Below the pieces are notes generated by a model, which worked only from the letters and a program-made list of their open reading frames with translations, searched no databases and had not been told where the DNA came from. From a virus (taxonomy: Duplodnaviria; Heunggongvirae; Uroviricota; Caudoviricetes), in IMG/VR virus record IMGVR_UViG_2778261464_000005: a stretch of 29,045 bases of DNA. One strand, written 5' to 3'. Every line of letters starts with the position of its first letter. Within the stretch, counting starts at the first letter, position 1. Of this stretch, positions 641 to 26,576 are shown piece by piece. A program made the position numbers and the translations under genes.

Positions 641-1830
641 AGCTCAGACCTGATCTGACAGTTACCGGTTATTTATACAGGTATCTGTCAGATTACATCT
701 GGCTTAAATTTTTCTCGGCCCAGATGCGCTTTCCATCAAGTAACGTTTCCATTGGCGTCCGCCCATTGCACATTTTTCCCTGATGGGTTCGCTCATTATT
801 ATAGTGAGCCAGCCATTCATCAAGATCCGACTGTAATGTATCAAGATCGCCGTACAGTTTTTTACGGAACGTTACCTGATAAAATTCGTTCAGGATTGTT
901 TTATGGAACCGCTCGCAGATGCCGTTGGTCTGCGGGGACATCGCCTTTGTTTTCGTGTGTTCTACATCGTTTATTGCCAGATAAAGCTGATAATCATGCT
1001 GCTCTACTTTGCCACAGTACTCCGTGCCTCTGTCGGTCAGTATTCTCAGTATCGGCAGGCCCTGAGACGCATAAAACGGCAGTACACGATCATTCAGTAA
1101 GTCAGCCGCGGTAATCGGTGTTTTGGTGACGTAAAGCTTACAGTGAGCCACTTTCGAGTACGTATCAACGAACGTCTGCTGATAAATACGCCCGGCACCT
1201 TTCAGGTTGCCTACATAGAACGTGTCCTGCGAACCCAGATATCCCGGATGAGCCGTTTCGATTTCGCCACAGGCCTCGTCATCACTGGCTTTACGCTCCA
1301 GTGCTGCGATCTGGCTGTCAGTTAACTCAATGCCATCACGGGCTACTTTTTCTTCCAGTGCTTTCGGACGTTTTTTGAAATTCTCAAGGTTATGGCGTAA
1401 CCAGACAGAATGGACACCACTGCCGGAGATAAAAACGCCCTGTTTACGCAGCTCGTTGCTGCGTCCGGTGCTGACTGTGTGCCGGGAAAGCGACGGCGTA
1501 ATCAACAACAGCCTGTTCAGTTGCCTCATCGGTACGGTTCTTAAGGTTAGGAGCGCGGCGACTACGATTAATCAGCGCATCCACACCACCTTCATCGACC
1601 AGTTCGCGGTAACGATAAAACGTATCACGCGAAACGCCCATGATTTTACAGGCTTTTGATACGTTGCTGAGTTCTTCAGCCAGATTGAGCAAACCGGTTT
1701 TGTGTTTGATAACGGGATTGGTAGTATGAAGCATGAGAGTTACCTCGTGTTTTGTATAAGGATTCGACACCCATATCAAAACCGGTAACTCTCAACCTTT
1801 CAAGGCTCAGTGTCAGATCAAGTCGCGACT
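641..1830 (-). mobile_element. IS481-family (YagA-like) insertion sequence, about 1.2 kb, between the left-edge ORF and the 3' end of int
   Basis: Encloses the HTH + rve/DDE transposase ORFs. Ends share TGATCTGACA (about 651-660; reverse complement at about 1811-1820) and GTTACCGGTT (about 661-670; reverse complement at about 1781-1790), but the right end has about 20 extra bp between the two blocks, so the terminal inverted repeats are asymmetric. Boundaries approximate. Confidence 0.55.
693..1779 (-). pseudogene. IS481-family transposase (HTH + rve integrase core, YagA-like), split by a frameshift into two overlapping ORFs
   Basis: ORF 1444..1779 (111 aa) has the N-terminal HTH (SKACKIMGVSRDTFYRYRELVDEGG) and ends ...AFPAHSQHRT; ORF 693..1529 (278 aa) has the DDE/rve core (TDRGTEYCG ... 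SPQTNGICERFHKT). Together about 380 aa, the size of one IS481-type transposase. IS481-family transposases are normally a single ORF, so the split reads as a disrupting frameshift rather than a programmed one. Confidence 0.7.
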
Positions 1831-1845
1831 AATACATGTAAATAT

Positions 1846-2976
1846 TCATATTGTTAAAGTTACCCAATTTTTTCCGCGGAGATCGTTATAACGATCAGTT
1901 TGTTGCTGGGTTTTATGTCCCAGCAATTTCTGAGTATCTATTCCCTGTTCTTTGTATAGCCTTTCTGACAATGAACGTTGCTCATGAAAGGTTGCTGGGG
2001 TTCCTTCACCCCAATCAATTTCAGCCAGATCCCTTGCTTTGCTAAAATTCATAGTCAGAGTATTAGCTTTTACTTGTGCCCCACGTTCTGCCTGTGAAGT
2101 TGATCTGAAAAAATGTACTAAGTATGGACTATCTACATAGTCACGGCAGCGAGCTACAACATCGCGCAGGCTCCAGTTGATTACATTCAAACGAAGAGAA
2201 AGAGGAATGGCTATTTTGCTGCCGGTTTTTTCCTGTTCGATATGCAGATGATCATCCCAGATATCGCTGAATTTCATTTTGGATATATCTCCCAAACGTT
2301 GGCCAGTAACCAGCGCTAACAGCATGGCATTTCCCATGTAACGATGAGTGGAGTCTGCGATATCAAAAATTTTTTGCCATTCTTCCAGGCTGAGGCGTTG
2401 ACGGGTGATTTTCCTTCTGGGTTGCTTCGTCGCAAGAGCAGGGTTATACCCTGGTGGAACTTCGCCATAATGCTGTGCTTCCTTAAACACATCGATTAAT
2501 ACAGACCTTACGACTTGGGCCATTCTAGGCTGTCCAGCTGTAATATACTCATCAAGCAATTGTGCTATATCTCTGACATCAACGGATGAGATCAACTTCA
2601 TTCCTGCTCGTTCTCTGAGCAAGGATACTGGTTTGGCTTTTTGCTTATAGGTATTGAGTCTTATATCACCACTTTTGAGCCTATCATCCTGGATCGCTTG
2701 ATAGCGATCTAACCAGGTTGACGTTGTGATCGCTTTTCCTTTGCAGGTTGCGATCCTGTCACTGATAGCCAGAATCTGTCGGGTTCTTTGTTCAGCCAGG
2801 CGTGTATTGGCTTCAGTGGCAATAGCGATGGCTTCAGCTTCGTTAGTTCCCAACGCATGAAATTTCCCTGTTACTGGATGCTTATACCGCCAATAGACTT
2901 TATTTACCTTCCTACTATAAAGCGGATATAAGTTAGGTACTGAAACATTATTCTTACGCGGTCTGGCTGCCATCAC
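1846..2976 (-). CDS. int: Lambda-family tyrosine integrase
   Basis: 376 aa with N-terminal arm-binding-type region (NLYPLYSRKVNKVYWRYKHPVTGKFHALG) and C-terminal catalytic region (FHEQRSLSERLYKEQ...LLGHKTQQQTDRYNDLRGKNW) colinear with lambda Int as I recall it. Overlapping xis immediately upstream on the same strand. Confidence 0.9.
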   Translation of the reverse strand: MMAARPRKNNVSVPNLYPLYSRKVNKVYWRYKHPVTGKFHALGTNEAEAIAIATEANTRLAEQRTRQILAISDRIATCKGKAITTSTWLDRYQAIQDDRLKSGDIRLNTYKQKAKPVSLLRERAGMKLISSVDVRDIAQLLDEYITAGQPRMAQVVRSVLIDVFKEAQHYGEVPPGYNPALATKQPRRKITRQRLSLEEWQKIFDIADSTHRYMGNAMLLALVTGQRLGDISKMKFSDIWDDHLHIEQEKTGSKIAIPLSLRLNVINWSLRDVVARCRDYVDSPYLVHFFRSTSQAERGAQVKANTLTMNFSKARDLAEIDWGEGTPATFHEQRSLSERLYKEQGIDTQKLLGHKTQQQTDRYNDLRGKNWVTLTI

Positions 2977-3199
2977 TCAAGATCCGTTGCAAAAGTAATG
3001 AGTCATTTTTCTTGATTACTGGTGTTACCAACTCCCCAACTAACTCAGCGTCCTCACGCACTCGCCATAACCGACCTTGTTTCATGGCCGGTGGGCAAAA
3101 TAAATTCTGCTTAGCATAACGACGCAATGTGGACACACTTGGAGGATTACTTCTGTATTTTTCAGAGGCCCATTCTTCAAGAGTTAACATTTGAAGCAT
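2954..3199 (-). CDS. xis: Excisionase (lambda Xis-like)
   Basis: 81 aa, MLTLEEWASEKYRSNPPSVSTLRRYAKQNLFCPPAMKQGRLWRVRED resembles the lambda Xis winged-helix N-terminus. Overlaps the int start by 23 nt, the classic xis-int arrangement. True start may be the internal Met at about 3190. Confidence 0.75.
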   Translation of the reverse strand: MLQMLTLEEWASEKYRSNPPSVSTLRRYAKQNLFCPPAMKQGRLWRVREDAELVGELVTPVIKKNDSLLLQRILSDGSQTA

Positions 3200-3272
3200 A
3201 TGCGATCACCTTGTTACTTCACTAACTGTTCAGTCTCTGCATATCGACCCTGCAAGGTCGGTTAGTTTCTCC

Positions 3273-3361
3273 ACAAAACAGAGAAGAGCACCTGTGGCCA
3301 CAACTATCAGGATGGATCGGGTTATGACCCCGTCATCCGGGGATACTCTTCTCTGTTTTGT
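3273..3361. repeat. Perfect 16-bp inverted repeat (ACAAAACAGAGAAGAG / CTCTTCTCTGTTTTGT) flanking a 57-bp spacer
   Basis: Read directly from the sequence; lies in an ORF-poor GC-rich stretch between xis and the next gene. Coordinates approximate. Confidence 0.6.
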
Positions 3362-3367
3362 AAAAAG

Positions 3368-3408
3368 GGCGGTACCAGCCGGAAGCAAGGGTACAAGCTG
3401 GTACCGCC
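3368..3408. repeat. Perfect 12-bp inverted repeat (GGCGGTACCAGC / GCTGGTACCGCC) with a 17-nt loop
   Basis: Read directly. The loop contains GGTACAAG, the same octamer as the half-site of the OR palindrome at 5230-5250. Further GC-rich stem-loops follow up to about 3560. Confidence 0.55.
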
Positions 3409-3625
3409 AAGACTACACACAGCATAAAGTTGTGGTGCCGGGTGCCTCCCGGTGCCTGGCGAAGGTTGCACACCAGGCGGGTGGGTATCCACAGAAGGTC
3501 GACTGTCAGCCTCAACCTTAACCCGCGTGCGCTGAGCCGCATTCACCACAACGCTAAGGATTCTCTCTGGTTGAAAATACTTAGCTGTTATGTGCCTGCT
3601 TTTAGCCACATCAGGCGAGGTGGAC

Positions 3626-3692: not shown

Positions 3693-4127
3693 ATGTCCGG
3701 TAATATCTATACGCTGTACAAATCCCACTGTGAAAATGTTGGAAAGTATCGGGGCATTGAAATCAGTGGGGTAGTGTCATCAGTCGAAATAAGCAAAGTT
3801 GAATCAAGGGCAACATTACTAACTCTTCTGGACCTTGTGTTACATGAGCACCGGAAGAAATTCGGCACTCCCTATAATCAGTTGAATGGGAAAAAGGCTC
3901 TGGTTCACCTTATTCTGATGAAGCATCACTGGATGCCAAAACAGATTAATGAGATGAAATTTGATGAACTTCTTCTTTCAATTCAGGATGAACTCACACT
4001 TGATAAAATAAGCGTAACCGCCCAGAAATTTTTAGATTATCGAGACTGGAGATCACAAATTCATCACTTTGATGATTTTGACGAAAATGAATGGGATCCT
4101 AATTTGTCTGCACAATATCTAAAGTAA
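3693..4127 (+). CDS. Hypothetical protein (AT-rich moron between xis and the immunity region)
   Basis: 144-aa ORF with no recognisable motif, transcribed opposite to int/xis/cI, lower GC than neighbours, preceded by the direct repeats above. Confidence 0.55.
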   Translation: MSGNIYTLYKSHCENVGKYRGIEISGVVSSVEISKVESRATLLTLLDLVLHEHRKKFGTPYNQLNGKKALVHLILMKHHWMPKQINEMKFDELLLSIQDELTLDKISVTAQKFLDYRDWRSQIHHFDDFDENEWDPNLSAQYLK

Positions 4128-4305
4128 CATCCTGTGATAAAACCGTGATTTCCTGATCCAGTTTTTTTAAGGAGTCTATTGTTTCCTGTCGATAAGACAG
4201 CACTTCACGAAGCTGGTTTATAGCTGCCAGCTTCTTTGTCATCCACTCATAAATTTCCTCATCTGTGTAGTCAGGCGCGACGATTTTGGGTTCTGTTTTG
4301 TGCAT
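4099..4305 (-). CDS. Small hypothetical protein (68 aa), first gene of the leftward early transcript
   Basis: Internal ATG at 4305 preceded by GAGGAGG (spacing ~6). Its 3' end overlaps the 3' end of the convergent 3693..4127 gene by 29 nt. No arginine-rich N-like motif. Confidence 0.45.
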   Translation of the reverse strand: MHKTEPKIVAPDYTDEEIYEWMTKKLAAINQLREVLSYRQETIDSLKKLDQEITVLSQDVTLDIVQTN

Positions 4306-4363
4306 TTCACACCTCCTCAAGTTATCAGTTACTTGTTGATGGGGACCAGATTGTTAAAGAGCT

Positions 4364-4388
4364 AAGCGTCCTGTAGGGCGCTTTTTTG
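4364..4388 (+). terminator. Putative intrinsic terminator (hairpin AAGCGTCC-TGTA-GGGCGCTT followed by T6)
   Basis: Stem with one G:T wobble plus TTTTTTG run, read directly. It could stop plus-strand transcription from the 3693 moron before the immunity region. Confidence 0.45.
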
Positions 4389-4454
4389 TTGCTAACGAAT
4401 CATCCTGGACTTCATATGCCCCAGGCGGCTACTTCGTGGGCGTCCTGCCTGTTT

Positions 4455-4500
4455 GTTGTTTTTCTTGGGTACATTATGTATCTCAAAGGTACATTGTCAA
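4455..4500. promoter_or_regulatory. Putative leftward operator/promoter region (OL/PL-like) carrying two GGTACA half-sites
   Basis: GGGTACATTATGTA and AGGTACATTGTCAAG share the GGTACA core with the OR palindrome. Sits between the cI terminator and the leftward small gene. Confidence 0.35.
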
Positions 4501-4502
4501 GT

Positions 4503-4526
4503 ATAAAAAAACCTGCCGAAGCAGGT
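4503..4526 (-). terminator. Intrinsic terminator downstream of cI (minus strand)
   Basis: Perfect hairpin ACCTGC-CGAA-GCAGGT (4511-4526) with an A7 run on the plus strand, i.e. a U-run after the hairpin on the minus strand, 14 nt past the cI stop. Confidence 0.6.
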
Positions 4527-4539
4527 TCATAAACATTGA

Positions 4540-5214
4540 TTAGGCTTTGATTTTGTATCTTCTTGGTTTTCCTGAGAAAATCACAGTACCAATTATAGAG
4601 CAATTACCGTTGATCTTAATGTAAGGCTCAGGCCAGTTTGGGTTTAACGCTTTGAGATAACGCTGTGTCCCATCTTCTATCAACCTTTTGAAGGTGGTTT
4701 CACCTGTATCGTGCATCAATGCAATAACGTCGTCACCGTGGCAGGCAGGTACTTCAGGATCGACAAAAATCATGTCTCCCGGGCGGTACTCATCAATCAT
4801 TGAATCACCTATCACCCGCAAGATATAAGTCATTTCCCCACAGGGTACAGGGCAGGGATACGTTTCTGCTGTGCTCAAATCAACCTCAGAATATCCAACT
4901 TCTTTCCATGCTCCGGCCTGTACCCATGATATGACAGGGACTAATGTGATTTGTTTATTAGTGATTGAAACATCAGGTTTTTTTGTGATGTTCGTTGTCT
5001 GGTGTTCTTGATCGAGCCATCCGACAGGCAGGTCGAAACATTTTTCGATGTGTCGTGCCATGCTGTCACCGATATTTTTAGTAGCACCATCTCCCATAAA
5101 CCTGCTGGTTTGGGTTGGCTCGCGATCAATCATAGTGGCAAAGGAAGAATTCCCGCCAACACCATCTCTCAGTTTTCTGGCGTTAGACCGCCGGATGTCA
5201 TGGATTGTTTTCAT
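4540..5214 (-). CDS. cI: CI-type prophage repressor (N-terminal HTH + C-terminal S24 LexA-like autopeptidase)
   Basis: 224 aa. The C-terminal segment VIGDSMIDEYRPGDMIFVDPE...FKRLIEDG...LKALNPNWP matches the S24 peptidase motif of lambda CI/LexA. Divergent from the Cro-like gene across an operator-bearing intergenic region. Confidence 0.85.
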   Translation of the reverse strand: MKTIHDIRRSNARKLRDGVGGNSSFATMIDREPTQTSRFMGDGATKNIGDSMARHIEKCFDLPVGWLDQEHQTTNITKKPDVSITNKQITLVPVISWVQAGAWKEVGYSEVDLSTAETYPCPVPCGEMTYILRVIGDSMIDEYRPGDMIFVDPEVPACHGDDVIALMHDTGETTFKRLIEDGTQRYLKALNPNWPEPYIKINGNCSIIGTVIFSGKPRRYKIKA

Positions 5215-5229
5215 AACGAAATTAAAACC

Positions 5230-5250
5230 CTTGTACCGTTAAGGTACAAG
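5230..5250. promoter_or_regulatory. OR-like operator: perfect palindrome CTTGTACC-GTTAA-GGTACAAG in the cI/cro intergenic region
   Basis: 8-bp arms with a 5-bp spacer, read directly. A candidate PR follows (TTGAAG at ~5255, TAATAT at ~5277), and another GGTACA lies at ~5293. Confidence 0.55.
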
Positions 5251-5304
5251 TATCTTGAAGGTTCATTTTAATCATGTAATATGTATATTGGAGGTACATA
5301 TTGT

Positions 5305-5505
5305 ATGAAAGCGTATTGGGACTCTTTAACCAAAGAACAGCAGGGCGAGTTGGCCGGAAAAGTTGGCTCAACACCTGGCTACTTACGGCTGGTTTTCAAT
5401 GGCTATAAAAAAGCCAGTTTTGTGCTGGCTAAAAAACTTGAGCAATGCACGTCAGGTGCAATTACGAAATCTGACTTAAGACCGGATATCTATCCGAAAG
5501 ATTAG
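5305..5505 (+). CDS. cro: Cro/YdaS-like HTH regulator
   Basis: Start taken at the internal ATG 5305 (MKAYWDSLTKEQQGELAGKVGSTPGYLRLVFNGYKKAS...), preceded by GGAGG ~9 nt upstream. Small HTH protein divergent from cI. Confidence 0.7.
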   Translation: MKAYWDSLTKEQQGELAGKVGSTPGYLRLVFNGYKKASFVLAKKLEQCTSGAITKSDLRPDIYPKD

Positions 5506-5536: not shown

Positions 5537-6106
5537 ATGAGGCTAATCGTGGGTAAGCATCACTGGAAAATAGAAAAACAGCCTGAGTGGTACATGAAAG
5601 CTGTCAGAAAAACTATCGCGGCGTTGCCGGGTGGTTACGCTGAAGCCGCTGACTGGCTGGATGTAACAGAGAACGCTTTATTCAACCGCCTTCGTGCAGA
5701 TGGCGATCAGATTTTTCCGCTGGGATGGGCAATGGTTTTACAGCGTGCTGGTGGCACTCACTTCATTGCTGATGCTGTGGCGCAGTCTGCAAATGGCGTA
5801 TTTGTGTCTCTTCCTGACGTCGAGGATGTGGACAACGCCGATATTAACCAGCGTCTGCTGGAAGTCATTGAACAGATCGGCAGTTATTCAAAACAGATTC
5901 GTTCAGCAATCGAAGACGGTGTAGTGGAACCGCATGAGAAGACAGCAATTAACGACGAGCTGTATCTCTCAATTTCGAAGCTGCAGGAGCATGCAGCACT
6001 GGTCTACAAAATCTTTTGCATTTCAGAAAGTAATGACGCCCGCGAGTGTGCAGCTCCGGGCGTCGTGGCGTCGATTGCTTCTGGTTGTGGAGAAACTAAC
6101 GCATGA
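5537..6106 (+). CDS. CII-like / YdaT-family regulatory protein
   Basis: 189 aa directly after the Cro-like gene; size and position fit the Rac-type YdaS-YdaT pair. Start uncertain (ATG 5537, or GTG 5551 with a better SD). Confidence 0.55.
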
Positions 6107-6461
6107 ACAGTTTAACAACACACTACCGTCGCTCGCAACTGATTGCGCTTCCTGTACCGGGTGGAAAAGCGAAGGTGGAATATTGCTATGCAGTGAATGT
6201 ACCAGGTGACAGGGAAATTGTAACCCACAGCTTTGCAGAGTGGGCTGTGGGTGATTTCAACCGGCAGAAGGAGACAGTCCTTTGCGACAAGTTAACCGCT
6301 GGTTCAAAGATCACTACGGAGTGCCCGTCAGAGTTATTCGTTGGGAGCCGGAAACACAACGGGTTATCTACCTCCGTGAAGGCTATGAGCATGAGTGCTT
6401 CAGCCCGCTCGAACAGTTTCGTCGTAAATTCAGGGAAATAGAGGTCGGTCATGAGCACTAA
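6103..6461 (+). pseudogene. Small gene between the CII-like and replication genes that needs a frame change to be read through
   Basis: ATG 6103 overlaps the upstream stop (ATGA). The protein-like N-terminal half is in that frame to about 6270. The protein-like C-terminal half (...[59 protein letters not shown]) is in the -1 frame, open from 6255, and ends at TAA 6459-6461 overlapping the replication gene start. The original frame continues as a Ser-rich, low-complexity tail to TAG 6441. Confidence 0.4.
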
Positions 6462-7392
6462 ATTAACCGGCTATGTATGGGATGGTTGCGCTGCGTCAGG
6501 CATGAAATTATCCAGCGTGGCAATTATGGCCCGCCTGGCTGATTTCAGTAATGACGAAGGTGTGTGCTGGCCATCAATTGAAACCATTGCCCGTCAGATT
6601 GGCGCGGGGATGAGTACCGTCAGAACGGCTATCGCACGGCTGGAAGCAGAAGGCTGGTTAACGCGTAAGGCGCGTCGCCAGGGTAACCGCAATGCGTCGA
6701 ATGTTTATCAGCTTAACGTTGCGAAGCTTCAGGCAGCGGCATTTTCTCAACTGTCAGATTCTGACCCGTCAAAATCTGACGCATCAAAATCTGACCCGTC
6801 AAAATTTGATGCGTCGAAATCTGGCAAAAAAGCGGGTTTTCACCCGTCAGAATCTGGCGGGGATCCGTCAGTAAAATCAAAACATGATCCGTCAGATAAA
6901 AAACCTTCTCGTCCGGACGCTTCGCAACCGGACACGCAGACGGCTGAACAGGATTTTTTAACTCGCCATCCTGATGCGGTTGTATTCAGCCCTAAAAAGC
7001 GCCAGTGGGGGACGCAGGATGATTTGACCTGCGCACAGTGGCTCTGGAAAAAAATCATCGCCCTGTACGAGCAGGCTGCCGAATGTGACGGCGAGGTGGT
7101 TCGTCCCAAAGAACCGAACTGGACAGCCTGGGCAAACGAAATTCGCCTGATGTGTGTACAGGATGGGCGTACTCACAAACAAATCTGCGAGATGTACAGC
7201 CGCGTCAGCCGCGATCCGTTCTGGTGCCGTAACGTGCTCAGCCCGTCGAAGCTGCGGGAAAAATGGGATGAGCTTTCCCTGCGCTTATCGCCGTCCGTCA
7301 GCACGTACACCGAAAAACGCGAGGACCCGTACTTCAAAGCCAGTTACGACAACGTGGACTACAGCCAGATCCCGGCAGGATTCAGAGGGTGA
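6451..7392 (+). CDS. Replication initiation protein (N-terminal HTH; iteron-encoded repeat linker; C-terminal Trp-rich domain)
   Basis: 313 aa. N-terminal LSSVAIMARLADFSNDEGVCWPSIETIARQIGAGMSTVRTAIARLEAEGWL is typical of phage replication-initiator HTH domains. The middle SDPSK/SDASK/SDPSK/FDASK repeats are encoded by the tandem DNA repeats. Position after cII mirrors lambda O. Confidence 0.75.
   Translation: MSTKLTGYVWDGCAASGMKLSSVAIMARLADFSNDEGVCWPSIETIARQIGAGMSTVRTAIARLEAEGWLTRKARRQGNRNASNVYQLNVAKLQAAAFSQLSDSDPSKSDASKSDPSKFDASKSGKKAGFHPSESGGDPSVKSKHDPSDKKPSRPDASQPDTQTAEQDFLTRHPDAVVFSPKKRQWGTQDDLTCAQWLWKKIIALYEQAAECDGEVVRPKEPNWTAWANEIRLMCVQDGRTHKQICEMYSRVSRDPFWCRNVLSPSKLREKWDELSLRLSPSVSTYTEKREDPYFKASYDNVDYSQIPAGFRG
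6755..6900 (+). repeat. Iteron array (probable origin of replication) inside the replication initiator gene
   Basis: Five tandem 15-bp units (TCTGACCCGTCAAAA, TCTGACGCATCAAAA, TCTGACCCGTCAAAA, TTTGATGCGTCGAAA, TCTGGC...) followed by three more CCGTCAG-containing units and an A-rich tract (GATAAAAAACC). Coordinates approximate. Confidence 0.6.
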
Positions 7393-26307: not shown

Positions 26308-26576
26308 TGAAAGAGCTTGAGTTAAAGAAACCGATTACCGCTCATGGCGAGACACTCTCCGTACTGGAGTTTGATGAGCCCACCGGGAAAGATGTCCGCG
26401 AGCTGGGGTATCCCTACCAGATGAATCAGGATGAGTCCGTCAGACTTCTGGCGCATGTGGTGTCGAAATACATTGTGCGGCTGGCGAAAGTGCCGCAAAG
26501 CTCTGTCGACCAGATGTCTCCGGCAGACCTGAATGCAGCGGCGTGGCTTGTGGCTGGTTTTTTCCTCCAGGCCTGA
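26307..26576 (+). CDS. Tail assembly chaperone (G-like, zero-frame product)
   Basis: 89 aa immediately upstream of the tape measure gene; ends ...WLVAGFFLQA and contains the slippery heptamer. Confidence 0.7.
   Translation: MKELELKKPITAHGETLSVLEFDEPTGKDVRELGYPYQMNQDESVRLLAHVVSKYIVRLAKVPQSSVDQMSPADLNAAAWLVAGFFLQA

Follow-up and report, generated by a model that had tools for sequence, protein, structure and literature searches.

Five 17-bp candidate operators of a lambdoid immunity switch in an e14/SfV-type prophage

The immunity region of the prophage described here (IMG/VR record IMGVR_UViG_2778261464_000005, Caudoviricetes; the window, that is, the whole stretch of DNA analyzed, comprises 29,045 nucleotides) contains five 17-bp sites that are very probably the operators of a lambdoid switch of the e14/SfV/SfIV type, read by the HTH of the repressor CI and probably by Cro as well. 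These sites are conserved, are located over three promoters, and track one family of HTH domains. At the level of sequence, the region displays every feature by which a lambdoid CI/Cro switch would be recognized: divergent genes, a repressor combining HTH and S24 domains, three OR sites, and an OL cluster.

Between positions 4300 and 5600, the DNA is 98–99% identical to that of the Shigella phages SfIV and SfV and of e14 of E. coli K-12 (98–100% across published phages), and the remainder of the window is an SfV/SfIV-like prophage. The immunity module of the e14/SfV/SfIV group contains cohE/ymfK (encoding CI), croE/ymfT, and ymfL, and the corresponding genes of the window are the following:

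4540–5214, minus strand: cI (cohE/ymfK type), 224 amino acids, N-terminal HTH plus Peptidase_S24 (E = 1.5e-26)
5305–5505, plus strand: cro (croE/ymfT type), 66 amino acids, YdaS-like HTH
5537–6106: open reading frame for a CP76/CII-like protein (ymfL)

The genes cI and cro are divergent, with a 90-bp intergenic region between them. CI is 100% identical to that of SfIV and 98.7–99.6% identical to the others. Its translation contains the motifs VQAG, GDSM, and FKRL, corresponding to the Ala-Gly, Ser, and Lys of the self-cleaving S24 type, and its C-terminal domain is closest to that of lambda CI, FKRL being aligned to lambda FKKL. The N-terminal domain was modeled (pLDDT 85) as a four-helix, XRE/lambda-repressor-like fold with the HTH at residues 22–28 and 33–40, the recognition helix corresponding approximately to residues 33–40 (PTQTSRFM). 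The module is widespread: the stretch was matched in 2,169 of 5,426 complete E. coli genomes (at least 80% covered in 1,316) and also in Stx2c-converting phages and Shigella serotype-converting phages. Homology to other phage types stops at 4443–4457, the outer edge of OL, which is the position where an immunity module should end; left of OL, the gene content of SfV, SfIV, and e14 differs from that of the window.

The earlier note had described a perfect palindrome in the cI/cro intergenic region, and this was borne out; it occupies 5230–5250 and consists of CTTGTACC (5230–5237), GTTAA (5238–5242), and GGTACAAG (5243–5250), that is, 8 + 5 + 8 nucleotides. The hexamer GGTACA, which had been reported to recur at ∼5293, is present as an exact match at 5293–5298. 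Two further copies had been claimed for the leftward operator region at ∼4462 and ∼4481; both exist, although 6–7 nt away from these positions, at 4468–4473 and 4488–4493. Overall, GGTACA occurs 19 times in the window, compared with 8.7 ± 2.8 expected (none of 100 shuffles reached 19), and 11 of the 19 copies are located between 3390 and 6203. The GGTACA/TGTACC motif is, thus, real and nonrandom. When the pattern TGTACC-N5-GGTACA was searched for, sites were found starting at 5232 (no mismatch), 4477 (one), 5282 and 4833 (two each), and 4457 and 5249 (three each). Allowing for no more than one mismatch, this 17-mer yields two sites versus 0.075 expected (0 of 200 block shuffles), and allowing for two, four sites versus 0.96 expected (2 of 200 block shuffles). 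A repeat finder independently assigned 4477, 5232, 5249, and 5282 to one 17-nt family and paired 4457 with 4477. Judged from these patterns, the putative operator unit is the 17-bp TGTAYC-N5-GGTACA and not the lone hexamer. The motif statistics from the window alone are moderate, and the decisive support comes from the comparison with related loci. The sites considered as candidate operators are:

4457–4473: OL2, weak candidate operator, TGTTTTTCTTGGGTACA; three mismatches; from the last base of the −10 hexamer of PL, approximately −7 to +10
4477–4493: OL1, candidate operator, TGTATCTCAAAGGTACA; one mismatch; fills the −35/−10 spacer of PL exactly
5232–5248: OR3-like candidate operator, TGTACCGTTAAGGTACA; perfect consensus; −18 to −34 of PRM
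5249–5265: OR2-like candidate operator, AGTATCTTGAAGGTTCA (AGTATC-TTGAA-GGTTCA); degenerate; centered at −43 of PRM; contains the −35 of PR
5282–5298: OR1-like candidate operator, TGTATATTGGAGGTACA; from the last base of the −10 of PR to approximately +10; covers the Shine-Dalgarno sequence of cro, GGAGG

The set, thus, consists of three OR and two OL sites, which overlap PRM, PR, and PL. The centers of the OR sites are 33 bp and 17 bp apart, those of the OL sites 20 bp. The OR2-like site directly abuts the OR3-like site, and the OR1-like site is placed relative to PR exactly as OL2 is relative to PL. The degenerate third OR site (5249–5265) was absent from the list of the earlier note.

The promoters, and the terminator bordering one of them, were placed as follows:

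4473–4500, minus strand: PL, leftward early promoter; TTGACA (4500–4495), 16-nt spacer, CATAAT (4478–4473); 11 of 12 consensus bases
4509–4528, minus strand: Rho-independent terminator of cI, from a terminator scan; also annotated in SfV
5221–5249, minus strand: PRM; −35 TTGTAC (5249–5244), 17-nt spacer, −10 TTTAAT (5226–5221); start at the A of the cI ATG (5214), leaderless
5255–5282, plus strand: PR; −35 TTGAAG (5255–5260), 16-nt spacer, −10 TAATAT (5277–5282); read from the sequence

PL sits just past the cI terminator, its start is predicted near 4466, and it is nearly invariant among relatives, with a C at the base after the −35 in 1 of 16. The RNA of its leader (4322–4467, minus strand) was predicted to fold no better than shuffled sequences (z = −0.4). 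The −10 and −35 elements of PRM could be placed because the transcription start of K-12 ymfK is the A of its ATG, with a leader length of 0 (differential RNA-seq; PMC4681348, text and supplement), and because K-12 and the window are identical from the cI ATG through 5265. The AAT of this −10 element and its distance to the ATG are kept in most relatives. PR, with a start predicted near 5289, is weak (8 of 12 consensus bases) and falls under the threshold of the promoter scan; the positions of its hexamers are conserved, the −10 being CATAAT in some relatives.

The start of the cI transcript is relevant to whether the palindrome, just upstream of cI, acts as an RNA hairpin (terminator or attenuator on the minus strand) and not as a protein site. 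The terminator scan does list 5250–5230 of the minus strand, with an 8-bp stem and a 5-nt loop, followed by GGTTTTAATT. However, as the cI mRNA starts at its own ATG, the hairpin lies outside that transcript, and its U-tract is poor. Furthermore, the stems of the palindrome are kept as exact sequence without compensatory changes, whereas the loop varies, and the same hexamers are found at OL and in sites unable to form good hairpins (5249–5265 and 4457–4473). A function as an RNA hairpin is, therefore, regarded as extremely unlikely, and the palindrome is treated below as a candidate protein-binding site.

Related loci were collected by a scan of one genome per species, which resulted in 16 loci from other enterobacterial genera (including Klebsiella, Pantoea, Rahnella, Edwardsiella, and Leclercia), the CI proteins of which are 73–88% identical to that of the window. 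According to the earlier note, absence of the motif from the operators of phages sharing this repressor would count against its proposal; the motif was conserved at fixed OR and OL positions in these 16 loci. The centers of the OR sites are located at −26, −43, and −76/−77 from the cI ATG, OL1 lies 60–97 bp past the cI stop codon, and OL2 another 20 bp further out. Within ∼5.6 kb per locus, no other sites with two or fewer mismatches were found, except one located 51 bp beyond OL1 in a single locus (L017), compared with ∼0.2 expected by chance. In the alignment of the intergenic region (17 taxa), half-site columns had an identity of 0.96 and an entropy of 0.14, whereas the corresponding values were 0.73 and 0.86 for the central 5 bp and 0.73 and 0.94 for the other intergenic columns (Mann-Whitney p = 1e-9 for the difference of the half-sites). 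Identity within the OR3-like site was 0.99 in the half-sites versus 0.49 in the center (17 taxa). At OL1, the half-sites are likewise conserved and the center is free to vary (16 genera). The right half of OL2 is GGTACA in 16 of 17 taxa and AGTACA in the remaining one, its left half being loose (nGTnnC). The OR2-like site deviates from the consensus by an A at position 1 and a T at position 14, and these deviations are themselves conserved in enterobacteria. Variation on a shorter scale was assessed with 80 prophages, that is, loci with an identical N-terminal domain of CI, which were used for polymorphism and not for divergence; it was mostly confined to the central 5 bp and to OL2, the latter being polymorphic (GATACA) in some E. 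coli prophages.

Because promoter hexamers coincide in part with several of the half-sites, some of the conservation of the latter could stem from promoter function: TTGTAC doubles as the −35 of PRM, the final base of the −10 hexamer is, at PR as well as at PL, the first T of a half-site, and the −35 of PR is inside the OR2-like site. Extended to all sites, this would mean that the conserved hexamers are promoter elements or spacing constraints of PL, PR, and PRM only, and not repressor sites. Yet the half-sites are equally conserved where they do not coincide with a promoter hexamer: within the PRM spacer (OR3-like site, left half), within the PR spacer (GGTTCA), and at +5 to +10, where both OL2 and the OR1-like site have their right halves. 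Moreover, one 6-mer occurring five times in inverted pairs with a fixed 5-bp spacing is not a feature of sigma-70 promoters, and the motif tracks the DNA-binding domain of the repressor into Pseudomonas phages, the promoters of which are different. Promoter function as the sole cause of conservation is, thus, given very little weight compared with the reading of the sites as putative operators.

Among the Pseudomonas phages, vB_Pae_BR133a encodes a repressor with 59% identity to the window CI over the first 71 residues. Its S24 domain cannot be aligned with that of the window CI, and its Cro is only 33% identical. The intergenic region of BR133a contains TGTACC-TCCTG-GGTACA (at −77), TGTACC-GTCAA-GGTTCT (at −42), and TGTACA-TTTCT-GGTACA (at −26); no OL-like pair was found within 900 bp downstream. 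The perfect site is, thus, proximal to cro in BR133a and proximal to PRM in the window. The GGTTC of the middle site and the placement of the OR1-like site over the Shine-Dalgarno sequence of cro are both kept in Pseudomonas phages. In 63 further viral loci, with N-terminal domains 56–100% identical to that of BR133a, the helix REPTQxSR was present without exception and upstream motif sites were kept, in most of them at approximately −26, −43, and −77. Two lineages among these loci have the sites farther from the annotated ATG, several loci have only the two outer sites at two or fewer mismatches, and some also contain OL-like sites downstream. The motif was absent from chromosomal homologues of ∼50% identity (124–133 amino acids), which have the helix RAQTQVSR. 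Sequences resembling TGTAkC-N5-GGsTAT are found beside the −10 of the latter, but these are only suggestive.

Motif and layout are, hence, kept in Pseudomonas and other phages where only the DNA-binding domain is shared, the N-terminal domains of these phages being 56–86% identical among themselves, which favors the claim of the earlier note that the half-site family common to both operators is the likely recognition sequence of CI and Cro. Which of the two proteins reads it is less readily derived from such data, as all lineages examined, those of Pseudomonas among them, have a Cro homologue beside the motif, and the comparison cannot separate CI from Cro. The sole reader of the sites could, then, be Cro (YmfT type) or a different early protein, for example the CII-like YmfL, with CI binding elsewhere. 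However, the repeat finder returned no other repeated element in OR or OL, and positions over PL and PR are those that a maintenance repressor has to occupy. It is also the helix of CI that is conserved wherever the motif is conserved, although the domain as a whole varies between 56 and 100%, and that is altered in the ∼50% identical homologues without the motif; the Cro of BR133a, by comparison, shares the mentioned third of its residues with that of the window. Exclusive recognition by Cro or another early protein is considered very improbable, and recognition by the HTH of CI, probably shared with Cro, remains the preferred reading.

The following switch is proposed on this basis. The HTH of CI (CohE/YmfK type) would recognize the five twofold-symmetric operators, as would, probably, Cro (YmfT type), which is envisaged to use the same sites. 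At OL, two sites 20 bp apart would occlude PL, one from within the −35/−10 spacer and the other over the start. The OR1-like site would cover the start of PR and the ribosome-binding site of cro, the OR2-like site would cover the −35 of PR while being centered at −43 of PRM, the position of lambda OR2, and the OR3-like site would overlap the −35 and the spacer of PRM, the position of lambda OR3. In a lysogen, PL and PR would be silenced by CI dimers bound at OL1, OL2, and the pair of OR sites nearest to PR; synthesis of CI from PRM would be kept in check through the OR3-like site. During the SOS response, RecA-stimulated self-cleavage of the lambda-like S24 domain would release both operons. 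As we infer, this scheme may also include an order in which the sites are filled, activation of PRM through the OR2-like site, and cooperativity or looping. The site matching the consensus best is situated over PRM and not over PR, unlike a simple lambda order of affinities, mismatch counts not being equivalent to affinities. The 17 bp between the centers of the OR3-like and OR2-like sites place them on roughly opposite faces of the helix, which is unusual for cooperative neighbors.

An SOS-inducible function that is not controlled by LexA has been reported for e14. In favor of the proposed switch, both e14 operons, left and right, vary together with sulA and recN, two SOS genes, in the “YmfT iModulon.” A LexA box (CTGT-N8-ACAG) was not found in 4300–5400 at up to one mismatch, nor was the 20-bp consensus at up to three mismatches, and the TGT/ACA spacing is 11 in the operators versus 8 in the LexA box.

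Part of this arrangement is already on record. In the GenBank entry of SfV (U82619), 26377–26445 is annotated as “putative operator region,” which corresponds exactly to 5231–5299 of the window and so spans all OR half-sites, first to last; OL is not annotated in that entry. The OR3-like and OR2-like sites of SfV differ from those of the window only in central bases outside the half-sites (GATAG for GTTAA). Those of e14 in K-12 are identical to the window, and its OR1-like site is TGTACACCGGAGGTACA where the window has TGTATATTGGAGGTACA. OL1 and OL2 are nearly identical throughout the e14/SfV group. A literature search by exact sequence and keyword retrieved no experimental binding work on this repressor, its Cro, or the sites, the one match to TGTACC being a primer; the Reg-Seq paper includes ymfT and ymfJ among its promoters, with no footprint given. 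The switch is, thus, an ordinary lambda-style immunity switch that is essentially already known (its OR part being annotated in SfV), and no new kind of mechanism emerges from it. For the e14/SfV immunity type, the analysis defines the likely targets of the repressor at base-pair resolution. This helps in annotation, in predictions of superinfection immunity among these prophages, and in interpreting the SOS-linked induction of e14 genes such as that of the division inhibitor, ymfM.

With lambda, the region shares 17-bp pseudo-symmetric operators, three of them at OR between divergent cI and cro genes and a second cluster at PL; transcription of cI from PRM as a leaderless mRNA; one operator at approximately −42/−43 of PRM over the −35 of PR and another over PRM; and a repressor with a self-cleaving S24 C-terminal domain, that of the window being most similar to that of lambda CI. 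The half-site, in contrast, is TGTACC and not TATCAC as in lambda. The centers of OR3 and OR2 are 23–24 bp apart in lambda versus 17 bp, with zero spacer, in the window, and the 33 bp between the OR2-like and OR1-like sites is also unlike lambda. Further differences are that there are only two OL sites, one of them weak, that the perfect site is PRM-proximal, that OL and OR are only ∼0.77 kb apart, and that no N gene was recognized in the window; according to the SfIV paper, SfIV, SfV, and SfII have no N gene either. The nearest solved relative of the N-terminal domain of CI is the Rep repressor of Salmonella phage SPC32H (PDB 5D50; profile E = 2e-10, Foldseek TM 0.78, 36–38% identity). Rep, which lacks an S24 domain, is switched off by an antirepressor, and as its helix reads RSQNLVNRW where that of CI reads REPTQTSRF, a different operator is expected.

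A wider reading of the comparison is put forward only tentatively and is rather doubtful: enterobacterial and Pseudomonas phages may share an old and portable cassette made up of the helix REPTQxSR and the TGTACC-N5-GGTACA operators belonging to it, with three sites at approximately −26, −43, and −76 and the GGTTC imperfection of the middle site, and the enterobacterial switch logic may perhaps be unlike that of lambda. Such a cassette may be common to phages in which the C-terminal domains of the repressors and the Cro proteins have diverged beyond recognition. A departure from lambda is suggested by the enterobacterial arrangement, in which the strongest site is over PRM and is abutted by the OR2-like site; the differing logic may consist of tight negative autoregulation or a Cro-first shut-off of PRM, without cooperation between OR2 and OR3. 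If the cassette exists, unrelated prophages carrying it could cross-repress one another.

Not all copies of the motif belong to the candidate operators. Within cI, the hexamers at 4844 and 4919 (encoding parts of P-V-P and W-V-Q) were dismissed as codon accidents because the valine codon varies among relatives, and the 17-mer-like site at 4833–4849 (two mismatches) was rejected because conservation is missing at its synonymous positions. No partner half-site accompanies the hexamers at 5589, 6153, and 6198. The earlier note had also pointed to a GGTACA in a hairpin loop at ∼3390. The hexamer is indeed there, as an exact match at 3390–3395, but it is outside the operator system. The hairpin (3368–3408), which on the minus strand precedes CTTTTT in the manner of a terminator, forms the 3′ end of a full-length match to STnc100 (RF02076; 3582–3359, minus strand; E = 8e-9), the score of which, 45.2 bits, is slightly below the gathering score of 47; DicF was matched weakly (24.9 bits versus a gathering score of 48). 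Both matches were obtained with an Rfam search in E-value mode, as at the gathering thresholds Rfam returned no match in the window. The copy was rejected as part of an operator and assigned to the putative terminator of a candidate STnc100/DicF-like sRNA, with the reservation that the scores are sub-gathering. The same segment, with GGTACA in the loop, is present in SfII, where cI is a different one and the 17-mer motif is absent from its vicinity; this indicates that the copy at 3390 is unrelated to immunity.

Comparison of loci from Pseudomonas and other phages (L027 and L115-L177) shows that the perfect operator lies nearest to cro in the Pseudomonas branch and nearest to the repressor gene in enterobacteria. 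The GGTTC deviation of the middle site is retained in Pseudomonas lineages and in enterobacteria. Stand-alone chromosomal homologues of the N-terminal domain of CI, 124-133 aa long and ∼50% identical, occur in Hydrogenovibrio and in metagenomes (L110, L111, and L113); their recognition helix reads RAQTQVSR. Upstream of these genes, the motif TTTGTAkCAAnnTGGsTATATAT adjoins the -10 element. As its left half is similar to TGTAYC, the motif suggests that the specificity of these homologues may be shifted.

For Stx2c phages, as for many prophages of E. coli, similarity to the window begins at 4443-4457, exactly at the outer edge of OL; for e14 of K-12, it begins at ∼4391. Both positions are mosaic boundaries. 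The leader of the transcript from PL, the predicted leftward early promoter, contains downstream of PL the segment GGCGGCTACTTCGTGGGCGTCCTGCC (4424-4452), which is kept in many genera, even with different downstream genes. No significant RNA fold was found for the leader (z = -0.4); as a guess, the segment could be a nut/put-like or a processing site. Farther left lie:

3693-4127, plus strand: rightward gene, ORF homologous to SfIV_36
4099-4320, minus strand: ORF of 73 aa, overlapping the end of the preceding gene
4364-4383, plus strand: strong terminator, facing PL

Since the terminator faces PL, the leftward PL transcript and the rightward transcript of the SfIV_36 homologue converge.

The Rfam family STnc100 gave a full-length match at 3359-3582 on the minus strand (45.2 bits, slightly below the gathering score of 47; E = 8e-9), and the 3′ hairpin of this element (3368-3408) also resembles DicF. 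It is common to SfII, SfV, SfIV, and ST64B and is likely a prophage sRNA transcribed leftward. On the plus strand, 3235-3480 folds far better than its shuffles (z = -5.3).

Toward the start of the window lie:

693-1779, minus strand: insertion-sequence transposase, two overlapping ORFs with HTH_29 and rve/rve_3 domains
1846-2976: lambda-type integrase, directly adjoining the transposase ORFs
2954-3199: excisionase, with the integrase beside the transposase ORFs

The transposase ORFs are probably an insertion sequence at the end of the prophage. On the other side of the immunity region, the replication-protein gene (6451-7392) contains:

6760-6823: tandem array of a 15-bp unit, 4.3 copies, TCTGACCCGTCAAAA

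This iteron-like array inside a replication-protein gene is reminiscent of the lambda origin, which lies within gene O.
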